A DNA stretch of 64,000 nt from a virus. Lineage: Duplodnaviria > Heunggongvirae > Uroviricota > Caudoviricetes. The stretch is taken from the IMG/VR virus record IMGVR_UViG_3300026484_000248, positions 34,711 to 98,710 of that record, one strand, 5' to 3'. Position 1 is the first letter of the stretch. The number at the start of each line of letters is the position of its first letter. A model generated the notes under the pieces. It was given only the letters and a program-made list of their open reading frames with translations. It did no database searches and had not been told where the DNA came from. Below, in pieces: positions 16,747 through 34,911 of the stretch. Both the position numbers and the translations under genes were made by a program.

Positions 16747-17355
16747 TTATTTGCCTTCTTTTTCTTTTTTATCTGAATCTTTTTCTTTTAACTTAAGTTT
16801 AGCCATCGCTTTACCTACTAATGTTCTGTATTCGTCTCTTGCCTCTGAACTACTGCCCCAATTAGTATCAAGTGATTCAACAGCTTCATCTTGAAATTTA
16901 AAAGCAAAATCCATAGCAGGAAGCAAATTTAAGTCCAGATTTTCTACACTATAACTTAATGTTATATGGGGTTTATAATCATCAAATTCCGAAATAAATT
17001 TATATTCTTGTACAAGCGCTTCATTTCGTTTAAGTAAATCTTGTGAATTTATTTCTGCAACTAATGCATCTTTATTTTCCCCAAATAGATTAAATTCTTT
17101 GAAAGTCCCTACTGCAGTATATTCAGCTGGTTCAATTTCCTCAACTTGTGGTTTCTTAGAATAAATTAAGCTGCAATGTAAATCCGTATTAATCTTTTGG
17201 CCTTTAAGATATTTTTCTTGATATTCTTTTACTGCCAGTTCAGTTTCCTCTGATAATTTAACCGATATATAAACCCCGTCCGGAAAATGAACCTCTTCAT
17301 GTTCTTCTCCGGTTTCTATATTATTTTCAGTAATATATTGTCTAAAGGTTACCAT
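16747..17355 (-). CDS. 2H phosphoesterase family protein (LigT / 2',3'-cyclic phosphodiesterase-like)
   Basis: It carries two H-x-T/S-x motifs (DLHCSLIY and KPHITLSY) with the spacing typical of the 2H superfamily. Confidence 0.5.
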   Translation of the reverse strand: MVTFRQYITENNIETGEEHEEVHFPDGVYISVKLSEETELAVKEYQEKYLKGQKINTDLHCSLIYSKKPQVEEIEPAEYTAVGTFKEFNLFGENKDALVAEINSQDLLKRNEALVQEYKFISEFDDYKPHITLSYSVENLDLNLLPAMDFAFKFQDEAVESLDTNWGSSSEARDEYRTLVGKAMAKLKLKEKDSDKKEKEGK

Positions 17356-17600
17356 TATAAATAGCCTTTATCGCCTGGTTTAAAATGTCCTTTGTTAATA
17401 TTTTTTTCCCAATAAGCTTTAATTTTATCATTAGTAGCTCTATCTGAAAGATTAAACCCTCTATTATTAGAATTTATTAATGATGAATAAGTAACATAAC
17501 CACTATACTTATCAGCATTTTTCAATATTTGCTCTAATTCCTCATCTGTTGGAACGGGTTTTTTTGATTTCTCACTTATGTATTCACTAAATTTTTGCAT
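17355..17600 (-). CDS. hypothetical small protein
   Basis: It is an 81-aa ORF with coupled start and stop codons. Confidence 0.35.
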   Translation of the reverse strand: MQKFSEYISEKSKKPVPTDEELEQILKNADKYSGYVTYSSLINSNNRGFNLSDRATNDKIKAYWEKNINKGHFKPGDKGYL

Positions 17601-17635
17601 TTTAATTCTCCTTTATTATTATTTATAGAAAGCTG

Positions 17636-18094
17636 TTACGAACAGCTTTCACAAATATAATTGTCTCCACCTTCTTTTTCTTGTTTTAAATAATAACTTG
17701 TTTTTACTCCTAATTTGAATCCATATAGATGCAATTGAGTTAATTCTAAAAGACTATCGGGTTTTGTGATATAAGTATTAATACTTTGCGCCTGGTCAAG
17801 CCATTTCTGCCTAACTGCTGCATTTTCAATTAAAATAAATTGATTACAACCAAAGCTTCTTTTGTAGAATCTATTATTTATTCTAAAATTTGGAACAAGA
17901 GTCGGTATTGTTTGGGTTCCTTCTTCTTTATAAAAGAAGTCGGCAATTGGTTCTATACTTTCTGTTGCATTACATGCTTTCCCACTTGTATTATGACTTA
18001 TACAACCATTACTTAGTGCATATTCATGCACTTCAGGAACCTTTATATCCCAAGTATGTTCTGTTAATCCATCTGTTATTTTTTTAATTTTCAT
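17636..18094 (-). CDS. nrdA: nrdA fragment 3: C-terminal intein-2 segment (about 35 aa, ..VHEYALSNGCISHN) fused to the NrdA C-terminal extein (TSGKACNATESIEP..HLYGFKLGVKTSYYL..CESCS)
   Basis: The extein aligns with the E. coli NrdA C-terminus (ESIEP, HFYGWKQGLKTGMYYL, terminal Cys pair); the intein blocks F/G end in HN followed by Thr +1; it is in the same frame as 18647..19630. Confidence 0.7.
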   Translation of the reverse strand: MKIKKITDGLTEHTWDIKVPEVHEYALSNGCISHNTSGKACNATESIEPIADFFYKEEGTQTIPTLVPNFRINNRFYKRSFGCNQFILIENAAVRQKWLDQAQSINTYITKPDSLLELTQLHLYGFKLGVKTSYYLKQEKEGGDNYICESCS

Positions 18095-18114
18095 ATATTT
18101 TCCTTTATTATACC

Positions 18115-18372
18115 TTATTGTTCTTGGGAGATTTCAACAATCTCCATATTTTCATCCAAGTCCGCGACTTGAACCCAACCCTCTGAACCATCTTTATATT
18201 TAACAAGTAATTTATGATTAAGTGTGAATTTATAAGAACTTCCATCTTCAAATTCAATTTCCCTAACAGGTTGTTTGCCATTATACCAGATTTTAGTTAC
18301 ATTTTTATCACCAAATCTCGTAGGAATAGTTATTCCCTTTTTTATATATTTACTAACTTTAATTACCTTCAT
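18115..18372 (-). CDS. Hint-domain (intein N-terminal splicing region)-like 85-aa ORF lying between nrdA fragments 2 and 3, in a different frame
   Basis: It has a block-B-like GSSYKFTLNHKLLV (G..h..T..H) and a GWVQVADLDENMEIV segment like intein 1 (GYVQAKELLKTDKL); it has its own RBS and ATG; it lacks an N-terminal Cys. Confidence 0.45.
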   Translation of the reverse strand: MKVIKVSKYIKKGITIPTRFGDKNVTKIWYNGKQPVREIEFEDGSSYKFTLNHKLLVKYKDGSEGWVQVADLDENMEIVEISQEQ

Positions 18373-18646
18373 ATTTTTCCTTTATAATATTTAATACTTC
18401 TTGACTTTTAAAAAATTATTCTCATTACTCCATATTTTAAAAATCTCAAAACTATTATCTTTCGCTAATTTTATTTTTTCATTTTGTATTTTTAAGATTT
18501 CTTCTGAACTTCTTTTACTTTAAGGACATTCCCATTCTTTTATATTTGGATGACAATGAATACATCATAATAATTATATTTAATCATTTTACGCCCACTT
18601 AACTTTATATCCATTTATAAAAATGAAGTAGTAGGCACAATTAAAA

Positions 18647-19630
18647 TCATATATATACTATATCCATACCTTCACAAATTTCCCCTGCTGTTATTTTTAC
18701 TTCTATATTATTTTTTAATATAGTTACTTCTTTATGAGTAGGTATATGCTTAATGTCTCCATTTTCTAAAACAATTCCTATATATTCGGTTTTAAAATCT
18801 AACCATTGTTGGGTTTCTTCATTCATTATTTTATTATAATCTATATTAAAATCATCCATAATATTTTGTAAGGATTTAATGCCTTCATTAGTTTTAATTT
18901 CAGTTTTCATTTCAGAACAGGCGGTTGGAGCTATGGCCATCAGAGCCGCATTTCTTAAACCAGTTACTTTAATTTTTTCTCTTAATTTGTTCCATCTGTC
19001 CATTTTAGGTAGATAATCAGTTAAATTAACTGTTTCTTTATTTGCTAAATCAATTGGTAAAATACCCTCAGCCCATTTTGTTTCGTAGAATTTTTCAAAT
19101 TTGCCTTTTTCCTCTGCTAATTCAGCACTAACTGAAATAATTATATAAGATAAATCATCAAATAATTTGTCTGTTTCTTCTAGTGCCTCTTGTGTATCAA
19201 TAATAATTTCTTTTAACGCTAAGTAATTTGCAAAGTTAAGAACTCCAATACCCAAATATCTATACATTAAGTTTGAATTTTTACCTTCTTTTACTGGATA
19301 GTTAGCAACATCTACAGTATTATCGAGTCCTCTTACAAGAGTTCTAATTAATTGCCATTTTTGTCCTTCATCCATATAAAACCATCTTTCAAGATTTACT
19401 GAACTAAGGTTACATAAAGCAATTTCACCTGCTGTATATCTTTTAACAATTCTTTTTTCTCCATTTTCCATTGTAAATAATTCTTCATTAATTAATTCCG
19501 ACGGTCGTGATGGAAGTACTATCTCTGTGCAGTTATGTACCAGTATATCATTTGCATAAAAATTATGGTTATCTTCTACAGTAATATCATATACAGGCAT
19601 TTCCTCTTCTAAATATTCTATTTTAATCAT
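18647..19630 (-). CDS. nrdA: nrdA fragment 2: C-intein-1 (MIKIEYLEEEMPVYDITVEDNHNFYANDILVHN) + middle extein (CTEIVLPS...LMAIAPTA, about 204 aa) + N-terminal piece of intein 2 (CSEMKTEIKT..., about 90 aa, ends TGA)
   Basis: The extein matches NrdA CLEIALPT..LCTLS.NL..LGIGV.NFA..GILPID..GLRN..ALMP; intein block F/G lies before the catalytic Cys; the start codon has an RBS. Confidence 0.75.
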   Translation of the reverse strand: MIKIEYLEEEMPVYDITVEDNHNFYANDILVHNCTEIVLPSRPSELINEELFTMENGEKRIVKRYTAGEIALCNLSSVNLERWFYMDEGQKWQLIRTLVRGLDNTVDVANYPVKEGKNSNLMYRYLGIGVLNFANYLALKEIIIDTQEALEETDKLFDDLSYIIISVSAELAEEKGKFEKFYETKWAEGILPIDLANKETVNLTDYLPKMDRWNKLREKIKVTGLRNAALMAIAPTACSEMKTEIKTNEGIKSLQNIMDDFNIDYNKIMNEETQQWLDFKTEYIGIVLENGDIKHIPTHKEVTILKNNIEVKITAGEICEGMDIVYI

Positions 19631-19645
19631 CTTTTTTCCTTTATT

Positions 19646-21274
19646 TTATTTATATTCTTTAACATAAACCTTGTTGCCTGAATCATATATTTTTCTATAA
19701 CCATTATTATGCATATTTTCTGCTTCAGTAACATCTGGATTAAAAGTTTCTAATAATCCTTTTAACTTATGTTTTTGGAACTTATTTCTAGACCATAGTA
19801 TGTTTTCTTTAGGATGGAAATAAAAATAGTTAGGTGTAGTATTATATTTAAAAGTGAAGCCTGATTTTATATAGAAATTACCTGTACTCCATCTTCTATT
19901 AGCGTAAGATAAAAGACTTTTAGGTTTATACGTTTTCTCGAAGTACTTAAGCATTCTAGAACCTCCACCTTGTATAGTATAACCTTTTTTAGTGCAGAAC
20001 CTAATAAGTTCATAATCTATATTTTTATTAAACCTAGGCTTACCAAAAGTCATTATAGACATTAGGTTGTCTTCATGATACATTCCTATTTTTATAGAAG
20101 AGTTGCAGTATCCCTGCATATGGTTATCATCAATAAATTTTCTAGCTTCCTTAGTTGGTACTTCTTTTATACTACATTTTCTAGCTCCTATTTTTTTATT
20201 TTTACTTAATTTATCTTCTATCATAGAAACCCATATAGATTTTTTATTTTTATCTAACCATTCATTTTCAAATATATGGAATAGTTGTATTCTTTTTTCT
20301 TCACAAGCTTCAGTTTTAATAAGATGGTAGTTTTTATTTTTAAATTTATTAGAATGCCAATATAAACCATTATATTCAATGGCAAAATTATATTCTTCAG
20401 AATACATATCTAATTCATAAGGTTTTATTATTTTTCTATTATCATATATAAATAAATCCTTAAATAGGGCCTTCATATTATCTGACACCTGTCTACCTAT
20501 TCTTGAAACACTAGAAGCATAAAAACTCATGTTTTTAAAAGCATTATAAGTGCAATTAAAATATTCACATGCAGTATAAATATCAAAATTTTTATTTAAT
20601 ACAAAGTGTTTAATTATAAATGTTTCATTAAAATTATTTAAATTATTAAAATGTTTTCTGGAAGAATTTTTATTTCCACTAAAATCTTTTTTAAAAGAAT
20701 CTAATTGAGCATAACTAGAAACACCATATTTTTCCATCATAGTATTATGAATTTTCTCTTTATTATTATAGTTTTTATCACCATATTTTTCTAATTTAGT
20801 TTTCTTGCTTTTTTCTATATTATTATAGTTTTTATCACCATATTTTTCTAATTTAGTTTTCTTGCTTTTTTCTATATTATTAATACTTGACTGATGGGTA
20901 TTATTAGATATCATAGTATCTTGTGCTTTTTTTCTTGATTCTTTAGACTGTGCTTTTTTAATCACCTTATTATGAATAGTCTTATCCTGAAAAACACTTA
21001 CATATCCGTACTTTTCTAACATTGTTTGTTGAGTCTTTTTAATTCTATTAAGTTTACTACATTCTTTACAAGTTTTATTATACCCTTTATTTAATGAAAT
21101 AAATCGTTTTTTATTGCCACAAGAACATAAACTATCATTATTATAAAAGTCCCATATGAACTTACTAGGTTCTTTCATATAATTTTTTTCTTCTAATGTA
21201 AAAGTGTGATTATTATATCTTCTGCTTTTTTTATTCCAAATAAGATCTATTTTTTCTTTTAATTCTTTTGTCAT
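19646..21274 (-). CDS. free-standing homing-endonuclease-like gene inserted inside nrdA intein 1 (same family as 8341..10113 and 57414..59135)
   Basis: It has N-terminal Cys4 zinc-ribbon modules, a 57-bp tandem in-frame duplication (KTKLEKYGDKNYNN x2), EYNGLYWHS, and a C-terminal module about 90% identical to 8341..10113; it is in the same frame as both flanking nrdA pieces but separated from them by TAA codons. Confidence 0.6.
   Translation of the reverse strand: MTKELKEKIDLIWNKKSRRYNNHTFTLEEKNYMKEPSKFIWDFYNNDSLCSCGNKKRFISLNKGYNKTCKECSKLNRIKKTQQTMLEKYGYVSVFQDKTIHNKVIKKAQSKESRKKAQDTMISNNTHQSSINNIEKSKKTKLEKYGDKNYNNIEKSKKTKLEKYGDKNYNNKEKIHNTMMEKYGVSSYAQLDSFKKDFSGNKNSSRKHFNNLNNFNETFIIKHFVLNKNFDIYTACEYFNCTYNAFKNMSFYASSVSRIGRQVSDNMKALFKDLFIYDNRKIIKPYELDMYSEEYNFAIEYNGLYWHSNKFKNKNYHLIKTEACEEKRIQLFHIFENEWLDKNKKSIWVSMIEDKLSKNKKIGARKCSIKEVPTKEARKFIDDNHMQGYCNSSIKIGMYHEDNLMSIMTFGKPRFNKNIDYELIRFCTKKGYTIQGGGSRMLKYFEKTYKPKSLLSYANRRWSTGNFYIKSGFTFKYNTTPNYFYFHPKENILWSRNKFQKHKLKGLLETFNPDVTEAENMHNNGYRKIYDSGNKVYVKEYK
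20764..20877. repeat. 57-bp tandem in-frame duplication inside endonuclease gene 19646..21274
   Basis: tattatagtttttatcaccatatttttctaatttagttttcttgcttttttctatat is repeated twice and encodes IEKSKKTKLEKYGDKNYNN x2. Confidence 0.8.
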
Positions 21275-21322
21275 TCTTTTGATATCCTGGCAATTATTTT
21301 ATATTTTACTAACTTTGGGCAT

Positions 21323-23014
21323 TTATTCTTTTATATTTAATTTATCTGTTTTAAGCAATTCTTTTGCTTGGACATAACCCCTATTTTCAGTCCATATTTT
21401 ATGTTCGGGAGTACAAACAATATTTTTACCCGTTTTTTCATCAATAATTTTCATTACTCTTGTTTTGGGGTTTGTCATAGCAAAATCTGTAACTATTTTA
21501 TATTCAACTTTTTTAAGTTTTGTATTATATGATTTCACTTTGTCGCCTATTTTAATGTCCTTAAGTTCTTTTGTCCCTTTTTCGGTTTGTACTTTAGTAT
21601 CACCTTTTAAACATAAATTTGAACTACCAATATATCTATTAAGCATTGAAGTGTTATTAACATTTTCTTCATGGAACAAATATATATTACCAGTTTCTGT
21701 TCTTTCTTTCATCATCTTTTCCCAAAGATCTCTCGCTTTAATTTTTTTCTTTTTGATATTTGTTTTATTACTGTACATTTCATAATTTTTATTAAATTCT
21801 TCTCCAAATACACCAACCAATAACGGAGTATCTTTAGGGTCAAATAACCACACTTCTTCATCCATTTCAACTGCATCCAGAAAGTTTTGATTCATTTTCA
21901 TTGCATATTGTAAACCTCTTGCCCTATTTTCATCAGTACCACCATTACTTTTAAGTGATAAAATATCAGTAACATCTAAATGCCACCAAGAGAAGTAAAT
22001 TGCAAGGGCACCTTGCCTTTTCCCGCCTTGATTCCAAGCTTTCATAATACTTTCAAAGAATTTCATAAATGGTACAGGCCCAGAACTATAACCTTGAGTT
22101 CCTTCAATATAACTTCCCCCAGCTCTCATCGCTGTAATATCTAATGCTGTTCCACCTTTAAATTTTGAATAAATTCCCAGGTTTTTACCAGTATCTAAAA
22201 TATTATGACTATCATCTGCTAAAGTATTTAATACACAAGAACTTAATTGCTGCCCAGGAGTTAAAGCATTTAACATAATTGGAGTAGCAACAGTATATTG
22301 ATGTTGTGAAATAGCATCATATAATTCAATCATTTTTTGAACTCTGTTATCCTTTTCGTCAATAGTAAGTGCAATAGCAACTCTCATATAAGATATTTGG
22401 GGTAATTCTAATTTATTTCTTTTACTATAATTAAGACAATACTTATCAAAAAATGTTACAAGTGCTTTATAATTAAAAATTAAATCTCTTTCAGGGTTAA
22501 TTGCAGTATTTAATTGCTGTATTTCATCTTCAGTTAGTTTATTAACTGTAAATTTATCGTAAATTTTCTTTTCAATCCCTTTAGTGAGGATATCTTTTAA
22601 TTCTGGATAAGTATTATGGTCACTTATGTTATAAGTTTCTTTATAATATTCAAGTAATTGTAATTTTGCCGCTACTTCTTCCCACATTGGATTAAGCATA
22701 CTGATTTTATTAACTGCAGTAATGATTAATTGCTTGTACATATCTTTAATATGAATTTCTTTATGTAATTTAACCTTAGTATCTCTGAGTAATTCCTCTT
22801 TCATATATTGATTTGGGCAAGACCAATCAACTACTTTATCTAATTTCTTTGGATGGAAAGGTTCTTTATGTCCTTTCCTTTTTATAATAATTATTTTTGA
22901 TGCTTTTATTTCTTCTTGATTTGAAATATCAATATTTTCCTTATTTTCTACTGCCTGAGACAAAGTGCCTAAAGGCACTTTGTTATATCTTTTTGCTTTA
23001 TTCTTATTACTCAC
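21323..23014 (-). CDS. nrdA: nrdA fragment 1: class I ribonucleotide reductase alpha N-terminal extein (about 467 aa, ends ...IGSSNL) fused to the N-terminal half of intein 1 (CLKGDTKVQT...GKNIVCTPEHKIW..., 96 aa)
   Basis: It has the ATP-cone and RNR large-subunit motifs; SNL is followed by an intein block A (CLKGDTKV) and block B (TPEH) and then a TAA stop; the following catalytic Cys (CTEI) lies in the next fragment. Confidence 0.8.
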   Translation of the reverse strand: MSNKNKAKRYNKVPLGTLSQAVENKENIDISNQEEIKASKIIIIKRKGHKEPFHPKKLDKVVDWSCPNQYMKEELLRDTKVKLHKEIHIKDMYKQLIITAVNKISMLNPMWEEVAAKLQLLEYYKETYNISDHNTYPELKDILTKGIEKKIYDKFTVNKLTEDEIQQLNTAINPERDLIFNYKALVTFFDKYCLNYSKRNKLELPQISYMRVAIALTIDEKDNRVQKMIELYDAISQHQYTVATPIMLNALTPGQQLSSCVLNTLADDSHNILDTGKNLGIYSKFKGGTALDITAMRAGGSYIEGTQGYSSGPVPFMKFFESIMKAWNQGGKRQGALAIYFSWWHLDVTDILSLKSNGGTDENRARGLQYAMKMNQNFLDAVEMDEEVWLFDPKDTPLLVGVFGEEFNKNYEMYSNKTNIKKKKIKARDLWEKMMKERTETGNIYLFHEENVNNTSMLNRYIGSSNLCLKGDTKVQTEKGTKELKDIKIGDKVKSYNTKLKKVEYKIVTDFAMTNPKTRVMKIIDEKTGKNIVCTPEHKIWTENRGYVQAKELLKTDKLNIKE

Positions 23015-24133
23015 TTATAATCCTTTTGCTCTTGTATATGATTCTAATTTACCGTCTGGTATATCATTTTTCATAATACCGATTGAATAAATTGACATAT
23101 CTGATTCTTGTTGCGCTACATTAGATATATTTAAATCCTTTTCGCCTTCAAAATATTGAACTGTATCTGTTTTAATAATATTAAATGGTTTTGCTACACC
23201 TATTGATGATAGTCTATCATCAACATAATATTTCATAAAATCTTCTACAACTCTTTTAGTCAATGTTGGTATATCACCAAAACTTGCTAAATAATCATAA
23301 AACTCTAATTCATCTCTAAGTACATCCAAAAATGTTTTAGTTGCCATATTACTAAACCATTTAGAATTAATTAACTCACTAAATCCTTCTGATTTTGTTT
23401 TTTTGAGTATTTGAATTGTTCCCGATACCATACTTGTATGAATATCTTCATCAAAATTAATTAATTTAATGATTCTTGTAGCACCTTGGATTTTATTATT
23501 ATAATTATTGTTAATAACATAAGTTACCAAAAATGATACATAAAATTTAACACCTTCAAGTGCTAATATACCAACAAGTAATTCTAAAATTATTTTTTTC
23601 TTTTCAGTTTCATCGCTAATACTATCAATATTTTTAACTCTTTTATATAATTCAATTTCATTATTTACTCTTTTTTGAATTTCCGGATAATCAGCAATTC
23701 TATCAAATATTGCTGAAGCATCACTAAAAATACCTCTTAATATATGAGAGTAAGATAAACTATGAATTAATTCAAAATAGCCCTGTGTCTTAAACATCGC
23801 TTCAAACTCAGGATTTGTGCATAAACTAGCTAATATTTCTTCAAGTCCACTATTTTGAGCAGAGTCCATTAATGTTTGAAATAACCAAACCCTAATCATA
23901 ATTTCCTGAATGTATTCAGGCATTTCAAAAAATTTAAGTGCATCATTTGTCATACTTATTTCTTTTGGATTCCAAAAAGCATTTCTTTGTTTTTCTTCCA
24001 TCGCTACTGCAAATGGAAATTTCGGATTATCGTATCTTTGGAAACCTGAATAGGAACCGAAAAATATTCTTTCCTTTGCATTCTTTGGTACTAAATTTTC
24101 AGTGCAAAGAATTCGTTCACATGAACTGCCCAT
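23015..24133 (-). CDS. nrdB: ribonucleotide reductase small subunit (NrdB)
   Basis: The protein shows IFFG...RYD, the ferritin-like di-iron motifs (E..H, FYVSF, EDIHT) and collinearity with E. coli NrdB. Confidence 0.8.
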   Translation of the reverse strand: MGSSCERILCTENLVPKNAKERIFFGSYSGFQRYDNPKFPFAVAMEEKQRNAFWNPKEISMTNDALKFFEMPEYIQEIMIRVWLFQTLMDSAQNSGLEEILASLCTNPEFEAMFKTQGYFELIHSLSYSHILRGIFSDASAIFDRIADYPEIQKRVNNEIELYKRVKNIDSISDETEKKKIILELLVGILALEGVKFYVSFLVTYVINNNYNNKIQGATRIIKLINFDEDIHTSMVSGTIQILKKTKSEGFSELINSKWFSNMATKTFLDVLRDELEFYDYLASFGDIPTLTKRVVEDFMKYYVDDRLSSIGVAKPFNIIKTDTVQYFEGEKDLNISNVAQQESDMSIYSIGIMKNDIPDGKLESYTRAKGL

Positions 24134-34338: not shown

Positions 34339-34911
34339 CTATGCATACCAACTTCTGTAAAATGTTTTATTTTCATCTTTATTAATTTTGTTGGCACTTC
34401 CACAAGGTCTTTTGAAACTGTCTCCATTTAATCTTACAGTAATCTCTTCACCTCTAAAATCATTTGCTACCGGTTTAACATTTTCTGATGCCCAACTTGT
34501 AGTTTCCACGCTTTCATAACTAATTAGTCTAACTTTAATTGTCGCTGCAGTTTTCTTTTCAGTTACCTGATAAAAATCTAAGTTAGTTTGTTCCCATCCC
34601 CAAGAATAACAAAATATATCTCCAACTTGAACATTTTTAGCATCTTCTGTTTTTTGGAGTTTTTGCTTTGCTTTTCTCTCTTTTTCTTTTACCTCGTTTG
34701 AAATTTTATTATTGTACCATTCTAAACAATATTCCAACATTCTATCTTCATCTTTAAATCTTGTATAAAATACAGTTTTTGTGCCATATTTGCTTCTTTT
34801 AGCAATCCTGTTAAGTTTAGCAATTCTTTTATCTTCTATAGTTAATATATAGCCTTCTTTACCTAATGTTAAAAATGCTTCTGTAAGTTGTTTTATTTTA
34901 TCAGTATTCAT
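34339..34911 (-). CDS. hypothetical protein
   Basis: It is a 190-aa ORF with a promoter at 34938-34962. Confidence 0.35.
   Translation of the reverse strand: MNTDKIKQLTEAFLTLGKEGYILTIEDKRIAKLNRIAKRSKYGTKTVFYTRFKDEDRMLEYCLEWYNNKISNEVKEKERKAKQKLQKTEDAKNVQVGDIFCYSWGWEQTNLDFYQVTEKKTAATIKVRLISYESVETTSWASENVKPVANDFRGEEITVRLNGDSFKRPCGSANKINKDENKTFYRSWYA

Follow-up and report, generated by a model that had tools for sequence, protein, structure and literature searches.

The 64,000-nt stretch of Caudoviricetes DNA analysed here (positions 34,711 to 98,710 of IMG/VR record IMGVR_UViG_3300026484_000248; hereafter the window) carries on its minus strand an nrdA gene that is interrupted by two inteins. 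The second of these (intein 2) is distributed over three minus-strand open reading frames (ORFs). The upstream ORF (18647..19630) encodes the NrdA middle extein and closes with a 90-amino acid (aa) intein fragment (N-piece, 18650-18919), starting from APTA/CSEMKTEIKT, where the slash marks the junction of extein and intein. The downstream ORF (17636..18094) begins with a 35-aa intein fragment (C-piece, 17990-18094) that ends in CISHN/TSGK. The start codons of these two ORFs are 1536 nt apart, a multiple of three, and the N- and C-pieces are therefore in frame with each other. Between them we found an 85-aa ORF (18115..18372) in a different frame, with the ribosome-binding sequence AAAGGA about 7 nt before its ATG, preceded by approximately 275 nt without a long ORF. 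An earlier note on this DNA had described an nrdA intein in three pieces, with the N- and C-pieces sharing a frame and the 85-aa ORF, equipped with its own ribosome-binding site, lying in another; its coordinates, frames, and motifs all proved correct.

The exteins on both sides belong to the reductase. The product of 18920..19630, comprising the 33-aa C-piece of intein 1 and the NrdA middle extein in the ORF shared with the intein-2 N-piece, matched Pfam Ribonuc_red_lgC (E = 3.1e-45) and Intein_splicing (E = 5.6e-7). The 117-aa C-terminal extein (17636..17989, ending YYLKQ...CESCS) matched Ribonuc_red_lgC with E = 6.6e-14, and the matches to this family flank intein 2 on both extein sides. 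The nrdA genes of Vibrio and Campylobacter phages are intein-free and align over the insertion site in two pieces.

Searches of proteins and contigs showed that this intein occupies the identical NrdA site (APTA/C...HN/TS) in several forms among related contigs (denoted by L numbers). It is contiguous in L006 (~150 aa) and two-piece in L005, L007, L009, L010, L011, L014, and L015; L008 shows the layout of the two-piece relatives, its N-piece being truncated where the contig ends. The canonical split site holds an endonuclease gene or its remnant in L005, L007, L008, L010, L011, L014, and L015, and only a 23-nt spacer in L009. In the two-piece relatives, the N-piece of ~113 aa consists of a 44-aa head with Cys1 and a middle segment of ~69 aa, which contains IWYNGKQP and FTLNHKLLV and ends with ...E(G/N)M(D/E)IV. 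A family profile of 147 positions, built from seven related NrdA inteins (one contiguous, six two-piece), matched the solved inteins Npu DnaE (E = 3e-6) and gp41-1 (E = 4e-3). The split point of the family, at the C-piece boundary (split 2), aligns with the natural split site of Npu DnaE.

The head of the N-piece, the 85-aa ORF, and the C-piece together cover this profile without a gap. Residues 1-44 of the N-piece account for profile positions 1-44 (44 bits), the 85-aa ORF for positions 42-112 (113 bits), and the C-piece for positions 113-147 (54 bits), while the remainder of the N-piece, its tail, aligned weakly with positions 69-111/112 (9-11 bits). When concatenated, the head, residues 14-81 of the 85-aa ORF, and the C-piece showed 53% identity to the contiguous L006 intein. 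Taken alone, the N- and C-pieces leave profile positions 45-68 and block B uncovered, and full coverage requires all three ORFs. The 85-aa ORF thus supplies exactly the part, positions 45-68 and a recognisable block B, that the N-piece lacks. At the level of sequence, three separately encoded chains are required to cover the conserved intein motifs.

The 85-aa ORF begins with a 13-aa leader (MKVIKVSKYIKKG, 18334..18372), which carries the ribosome-binding site upstream. The body of the ORF, which we propose as the middle fragment (M-piece), occupies 18115..18333 (ITIPTRFGDK...IWYNGKQPV...FTLNHKLLV...ENMEIVEISQEQ, then stop) and is extein-free. The block-B motif TxxH, invariant in the family and present here as FTLNHKLLV, was found only in this ORF among the intein-2 pieces. 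Pfam Intein_splicing matched the ORF below its gathering score (E = 4.9e-5, profile positions 35-92). In a four-sequence alignment of middle segments that included the 85-aa ORF (A1), this ORF and its L001 homologue kept 24 of 24 invariant columns. The L001 homologue is a free-standing 81-aa ORF, ~70% identical. The Pfam match, the 113-bit family-profile score, and the separate 81-aa homologue in another phage argue that the 85-aa ORF is not a chance ORF. It had been taken for a complete N-terminal splicing domain lacking only the initial Cys; instead, the entire first 44 residues (block A) are absent and the leader stands in their place. Modelled alone with AlphaFold2, the M-piece was beta-rich at low confidence (predicted local distance difference test score, pLDDT, 57), and a Foldseek search of the PDB with this pLDDT-57 model returned nothing significant, with inteins at the top of the list.

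The C-piece (MKIKKITDGLTEHTWDIKVPEVHEYALSNGCISHN, MKIKK...CISHN, 17990..18094) contains blocks F and G and is fused to the C-extein from TSGKAC. Its junction, ...HTWDIKVPEVHEYALSNGCISHN/TSGKAC, comprises the terminal His-Asn followed by Thr+1. The C-piece is 86% identical to that of L001.

The N-piece is composed of a head and a tail. The head (44-45 aa, CSEMKTEIKT...QQWLDFKTE, 18785..18919) contains block A with Cys1, is fused to the NrdA middle extein (...MAIAPTA/C), and aligns with residues 1-44 of the contiguous L006 intein. It is 78% identical to the head in L016, and Cys1 is present in L016, L013, and every family member. The tail (45-46 aa, YIGIVLENGDIKHIPTHKEVTILKNNIEVKITAGEICEGMDIVYI followed by a stop codon, 18647..18784) partially duplicates family positions 69-112 in degenerate form, corresponding to the canonical N-intein from block B to its end, and the N-piece terminates with ...EGMDIVYI and a stop, like canonical N-pieces. 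The hhalign comparison of the tail profile with the middle-segment profile gave a probability of 93% (E = 2.7e-7). The tail is 69% identical to the L016 tail and 33% identical to the L013 tail (z = 6.8 against shuffles). The TxxH motif is absent from it, and its conserved motif is K.IP...L.NN. The N-piece is devoid of family positions 45-68, among them 7 invariant residues (T50, G53, I60-G64; alignment A2). Queries with the 90-aa N-piece produced no matches by word-indexed protein search or in PDB, Pfam, and viral and genome contig scans, and its L016 homologue was detected only by an exhaustive HMMER search. The AlphaFold2 model of the N-piece alone was uninformative (pLDDT 42). Two further explanations of the tail were considered and rejected: an N-terminal end from a foreign intein, as no relatives occur elsewhere among 1.84 billion representative proteins, and a nested second intein formed by tail and leader, as blocks A, F, and G are absent from both.

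The ~275 nt upstream of the 85-aa ORF contain the remains of HEG-A, our name for a free-standing gene of a putative homing endonuclease. The relic (18373..18587) keeps the start MIKY, has lost ~320 codons by deletion, and retains ~215 nt, representing the 3' quarter of the gene in a frameshifted and internally deleted state. Its last ~100 codons are interrupted by an in-frame stop, have lost 8 codons, and contain a frameshift. By tblastn, window positions 18561-18406 correspond to residues 345-404 of the intact L001 HEG-A (65% identical, E = 6e-26), and positions 18415-18362 to residues 402-419 in a different frame; blastn gave 80.9% identity to L001 across 335 nt. The zinc-ribbon-like fragments previously noticed in this debris are not zinc ribbons: HCHPNIKEWECP is a stretch of the HEG-A nuclease core (IFEYNGIHCHPNI...EWECP; IHCHPNI...EWECP). 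A group I intron or another RNA element between the pieces was also rejected, Rfam being empty over 17400-23200.

The relic is preceded by a 5' leader (18588..18646) in which an RNA hairpin encloses the late-promoter-like TATAAATG, just upstream of the relic ATG (18587-18585). The hairpin has a predicted energy of -13.3 kcal/mol (z = -2.2), and its L016 counterpart around TATAAATA one of -18.4 kcal/mol (z = -4.4). A hairpin enclosing TATAAAT(G/A) upstream of the HEG-A start is thus common to the window and L016.

Intact HEG-A homologues occur in L001, L013, L014, and L015. In L001 the gene spans at least 419 codons, lies directly upstream of the 81-aa ORF, and overlaps the start of that ORF with its stop by 14 nt. 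HEG-A had no Pfam match and no PDB match, either by sequence or by a 13-sequence profile; a HEG-A query of viral contigs found nothing, and the only PHROG match was 22677, of unknown function. Its motif YYD...IFEYNG.H.HP...GF.V.EIW resembles a PD-(D/E)xK core, by eye only. From its position, its context, and its pattern of presence and absence, HEG-A is a putative homing endonuclease.

Three independent assemblies of the window phage (L002, L003, and L004, from ENA, Logan, and JGI; 99.7-99.9% identical) break within ~80 nt of the HEG-A deletion junction (18591-18669). Because these contigs all start near the junction, this suggests that variants with different HEG-A states coexist in the samples. 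A 29-nt direct repeat, 79% identical, closely precedes the start codons of the C-piece and the M-piece (18098-18126 and 18375-18403) and could trace a second HEG-A copy at the canonical site. The relic of a second copy just upstream of the C-piece was left as a weak candidate, its start-region similarity being no greater than that of other gene starts.

We compared the locus with those of related phages, as the earlier note had proposed, and found the layout in two further lineages. In L016, the ORF of the head-and-tail N-piece (P0026) is 73% identical over all 90 residues. L016 shares its assembly with L001. Read across the two, head and tail are followed by the hairpin, an intact HEG-A, and the 81-aa ORF, after which come a second gene for an endonuclease, of a different kind, a 58-aa ORF, and the C-piece with its extein. 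The second endonuclease-like gene, which lies with the 58-aa ORF at the canonical split site (L001 1571-2546), is different from HEG-A (260 aa, with DUF7487 repeats and an HLDH motif), and the 58-aa ORF has no Pfam match; this sister phage thus holds two unrelated endonuclease genes within one intein. The more distant L013 closes its NrdA-N ORF with head and tail, followed by a 624-aa ORF (P0003, L013 6001-7875) in which a HEG-A homologue, the leader, the middle segment, the C-piece, and the C-extein are fused in frame. The counterpart of the M-piece leader in L013 is accordingly an in-frame linker. Judged by its reading frames, the L013 intein consists of two pieces and is split atypically early. 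The placement of its endonuclease in the N-lobe is unusual, unlike the conserved insertion site. The large intein fragment of L013 would be translated with the endonuclease as an extension at its N-terminus, and splicing would set the endonuclease free.

The relatives also explain the leader. In L014 and L015, the HEG-A homologues at the canonical site have 3' ends (...NIIKEKYENKKDNK, then stop) that overlap the C-piece start MKIKKIT by 26 nt. The start of the 85-aa ORF (MKVIKV..., preceded in the HEG-A frame by ...NIIKEKYE) is the same module at the DNA level (alignment A8), indicating that the 13-aa leader of the M-piece is a former C-piece start that once overlapped the HEG-A 3' end. The junction of head and tail is colinear in the three lineages (window, L016, and L013), which indicates that the rearrangement occurred once.

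Selection on each piece was estimated by the Nei-Gojobori method from the window versus L016/L001. The ratio of nonsynonymous to synonymous divergence (dN/dS) was 0.046 for the head, 0.35 for the tail (p = 0.025 versus neutrality), 0.28 for the M-piece (p = 0.001; dS 0.78 versus L001), and 0.11 for the C-piece; the middle extein gave 0.088 and the C-piece of intein 1 gave 0.019. The ratio was not estimable for the C-extein, where dN was 0.18 and synonymous sites were saturated versus L001, and the comparison with L013 was too saturated for dN/dS. The middle segments of canonical two-piece pairs gave 0.07-0.39; the free-standing M-piece falls inside this range and is as constrained as middle segments that must function. 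The constraint on the tail falls on its own motif (K.IP, L.NN), not on TxxH. The three-piece layout predates the divergence of the window phage and the L001 phage, and all its pieces are under purifying selection.

These values bear on the view that the locus is decaying, with intein 2 dead, nrdA becoming a pseudogene, and the 85-aa ORF open by chance. The endonuclease gene inside the element is clearly dead and the element has been rearranged, in keeping with such a view; however, every extein and intein ORF is intact, every piece shows a dN/dS of 0.35 or lower versus a phage at dS ~0.8 or saturation, and contigs from three independent samples are 99.7-99.9% identical. We regard decay as very improbable.

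The synonymous differences were not uniform along 17636-19630. Their proportion (pS) versus L016/L001 was 0.44 in the tail, 0.48 in the M-piece, and 0.54 in the C-piece, and 0.73 in the head, 0.65 in the middle extein, and 0.90 in the C-extein. Synonymous sites near the endonuclease relic have diverged less than those in the flanks, a hint, from small samples, that phages exchanged the part next to the endonuclease at a later time than the remainder of nrdA.

Considering these results together, we favour the interpretation that intein 2 of the window-phage nrdA is a working natural three-piece split intein, to which we assign a probability of roughly 0.6. The N-piece would contribute the NrdA middle extein, the 44-aa head with block A and Cys1, and the 46-aa tail. 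The M-piece would be a free-standing, extein-free protein of 85 aa, in which the 13-aa leader is followed by the block-B segment with TLNH, and the 35-aa C-piece would bring blocks F and G and the terminal HN, followed by Thr+1 and the C-extein. The three chains would assemble into one HINT domain and trans-splice both NrdA exteins; with the two-piece intein 1, four polypeptides would give one NrdA. The earlier note had left three options for the 85-aa ORF, namely a third partner, a decayed duplicate, and the relic of a lost endonuclease insertion, and all three exist at the locus as different pieces of DNA. The duplicate is the N-piece tail and the lost endonuclease is the 275-nt debris, and the role of third partner is the one best supported for the ORF itself, by TLNH and all the middle-segment invariants, by its dN/dS of 0.28, and by its conservation as a free-standing gene.

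Several points weigh against a three-piece intein. The tail is likewise under purifying selection, and in the window (KHIPTHK) and in L016 (KHIPGHQ) it holds two histidines, which makes a tail-based two-piece reaction conceivable in the window lineage. The two-piece intein gp41-1 consists of 88 + 37 aa, equal to the 125-aa total of 90 + 35. L016 and L001 are separate contigs of one assembly, so that their adjacency is inferred, and the layout is represented by three lineages, too few for covariation between the pieces.

The first of these points lead to the alternative that the 90-aa N-piece, head and tail together, and the 35-aa C-piece suffice as a compact split intein, leaving the 85-aa protein as a passenger from a rearranged allele or, at most, a modulator of splicing such as a Cys-less decoy that binds the C-piece. 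The homology of the tail to the family N-intein from block B to its end, the selection acting on it, and its H-K/H-Q residues near the block-B position in the window and L016 would agree with this, as would a three-piece Rma DnaB intein reported to have some activity when its middle piece is missing (bioRxiv 10.1101/2023.01.30.526203). The N-piece, however, lacks positions 45-68 with their 7 invariant residues, and the conserved residues of the tail differ from block B. Histidine is absent from the whole L013 tail, which cannot provide the block-B histidine. The 85-aa ORF, by contrast, retains all the family invariants and has remained open through a dS of ~0.8 at a dN/dS like that of functional middle segments, and in L013 the middle segment is covalently linked to the C-piece. 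A complete mini-intein of 90 + 35 aa is weakened by the missing positions and the histidine-free L013 tail, and we consider this alternative unlikely.

A different alternative dispenses with splicing: the NrdA fragments would join non-covalently, and the intein pieces would serve only as interaction domains, as the tails of Aeh1 NrdA-a/NrdA-b do. An endonuclease-split phage NrdA indeed works unspliced by means of insertion-derived tails (Crona et al., PMC3045599), and the tail and leader here are insertion-derived too. However, the splicing residues Cys1, TLNH (TxxH), the terminal HN, and Thr+1 are all kept in three diverged lineages (window, L016/L001, and L013), a conservation that non-covalent assembly leaves unexplained, and the pieces bearing them are under strong to moderate purifying selection. 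Moreover, the break lies within the conserved reductase core (APTA/TSGK), where relatives have a contiguous, presumably splicing, intein. Unspliced assembly appears improbable to us, though less so than decay of the locus.

The relatives allow the origin of the three-piece arrangement to be reconstructed, and the simplest history would be as follows. The putative HEG-A normally resides at the canonical split site of the family intein. A cassette running from the end of an N-intein through a stop and HEG-A to the start of a C-intein would have been inserted as a copy between N-lobe positions 44 and 45. Its upstream flank, the N-intein end, would have become the tail, and the M-piece would have gained its leader from the downstream flank, which comprised the first ~12 C-intein codons. 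The canonical site would have been split as well, and HEG-A would later have decayed to ~215 nt in the window.

The conserved tail and leader may, speculatively, act as a module for the association of the N- and M-pieces, because both are copies of segments that pair across the canonical split. In an extended form of this idea, the jump of HEG-A into the N-lobe would have duplicated the two strands that zip a split intein, the N-intein end and the C-intein start; the copied tail and leader would join the N- and M-pieces, and the original pair would join the M- and C-pieces. Intein 2 would then be the first natural three-piece split intein with a built-in assembly device, and its splicing would strictly need three chains. 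We offer this extended form tentatively and would sooner expect it to fail than to hold.

The other intein of this nrdA, intein 1, is split into two pieces in the ordinary way (CLKGDTKV... and ...NDILVHN/CTEIV), with its N-piece at the end of the ORF 21323..23014 and its C-piece at the start of the ORF 18647..19630. Between the halves lies a minus-strand gene for a 542-aa endonuclease (19646..21274), which matched PHROG 3339 'homing endonuclease' (E = 1e-118), PHROG 559 (HNH), and Pfam DUF7487 repeats. The intein-1 site varies among the relatives: L007 has no intein there, a 123-aa ORF separates the halves in L009, and the intein of L005 is large and contiguous. Directly downstream of nrdA, an 81-aa ORF (17355-17600, minus strand) showed a faint match to YfbR-like 5'-deoxynucleotidase under the Pfam cut-off (E = 0.005). 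Two genes downstream of nrdA, a 202-aa ORF (16747-17355, minus strand) matched Acb1, a phage counter-defence protein against the cyclic oligonucleotide-based antiphage signalling system (anti-CBASS; Pfam PF23474, E = 8.9e-26). A scan for sigma-70 promoters was at background, with 19 found versus 14.4 expected.

Inteins are known as one- or two-gene elements, and an intein in three genes is an arrangement that has so far only been engineered. According to a 2023 preprint, a natural three-piece intein had not yet been demonstrated (bioRxiv 10.1101/2023.01.30.526203), and our literature searches, including work after that preprint, uncovered no natural intein reported to consist of more than two pieces. 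If our interpretation is correct, a natural and selected three-piece intein would settle whether such inteins exist in nature and would illustrate the way in which a protein domain is broken up by endonuclease genes. Among the relatives, the intein survives in contiguous, two-piece, atypical endonuclease-fused, and three-piece forms, which are plausible steps to intein 2. Three-input protein logic or the ligation of multiple fragments could make use of an evolved middle fragment, possibly together with a natural association module. Annotators of split inteins should bear in mind that a small nearby ORF without an extein may belong to the intein.

Intein 2 resembles the fractured genes (Dassa et al. 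2009, PMC2677866; gp41-1, NrdJ-1, NrdA-2, and IMPDH-1) in interrupting a phage-type DNA-metabolism gene with consecutive intein ORFs on the same strand, and in having an endonuclease gene between the pieces whose 3' end overlaps the next intein ORF. A hairpin with a late-promoter element also precedes the endonuclease genes of fractured genes (PMC2677866), as the hairpin with TATAAATA does here. Intein 1 of the window nrdA and the inteins of L005, L007, L008, L010, L011, L014, and L015 are ordinary examples of this class. Unlike them, intein 2 is cut twice, giving three ORFs of which one is extein-free; the extra cut is inside the N-lobe, and the N-piece bears a degenerate duplicate segment. 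The NrdA site (APTA/TS) also differs from the thiyl-radical site of NrdA-1 to NrdA-7 (Dassa). HEG-A was compared with the 'Vsr-like'/EDxHD homing endonucleases (Dassa 2009; I-Bth0305I), again with no Pfam or PDB match to place it.

The closest parallels in architecture are the engineered three-piece inteins (Ssp DnaB at S1 and S0, Sun et al. 2004; Rma DnaB; Npu DnaE; gp41-1, Weis et al. 2023). They consist of the same N, M, and C fragments, with block B on an extein-free M fragment, are likewise cut once in the N-intein and once at the canonical site, and use the same polycistronic order of stop, ribosome-binding site, and start. In engineered three-piece gp41-1, 7 of the 7 tested N-intein sites were active and all three fragments were needed (bioRxiv 10.1101/2023.01.30.526203). 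In contrast to these constructs, intein 2 is natural, shaped by endonuclease gene insertions, conserved under selection, equipped with an additional tail and leader, and predicted from its sequence to splice.

The natural atypical split inteins (AceL-TerL, GOS-TerL, and VidaL) share the early break in the N-lobe, with N-pieces of 25 aa in AceL-TerL and 37 aa in GOS-TerL (PMC11766414), and carry block B on the downstream fragment. The equivalence of the split position was inferred through the alignment to gp41-1 and Npu DnaE. L013 is essentially of this type, except that its downstream fragment has an endonuclease at the N-terminus. Those inteins are two-piece, whereas the upstream fragment of intein 2 reaches 90 aa through a family-specific insertion and the tail. 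Finally, Aeh1 NrdA-a/NrdA-b (Crona et al. 2011, PMC3045599) is likewise a phage nrdA broken by an endonuclease gene, and the insertion made short sequences at the upstream C-terminus and the downstream N-terminus that are needed for assembly, a precedent for a tether of tail and leader. Aeh1 nrdA has no intein and its fragments stay unligated, whereas the tail and leader described here flank a break inside an intein, where their role is hypothesised.

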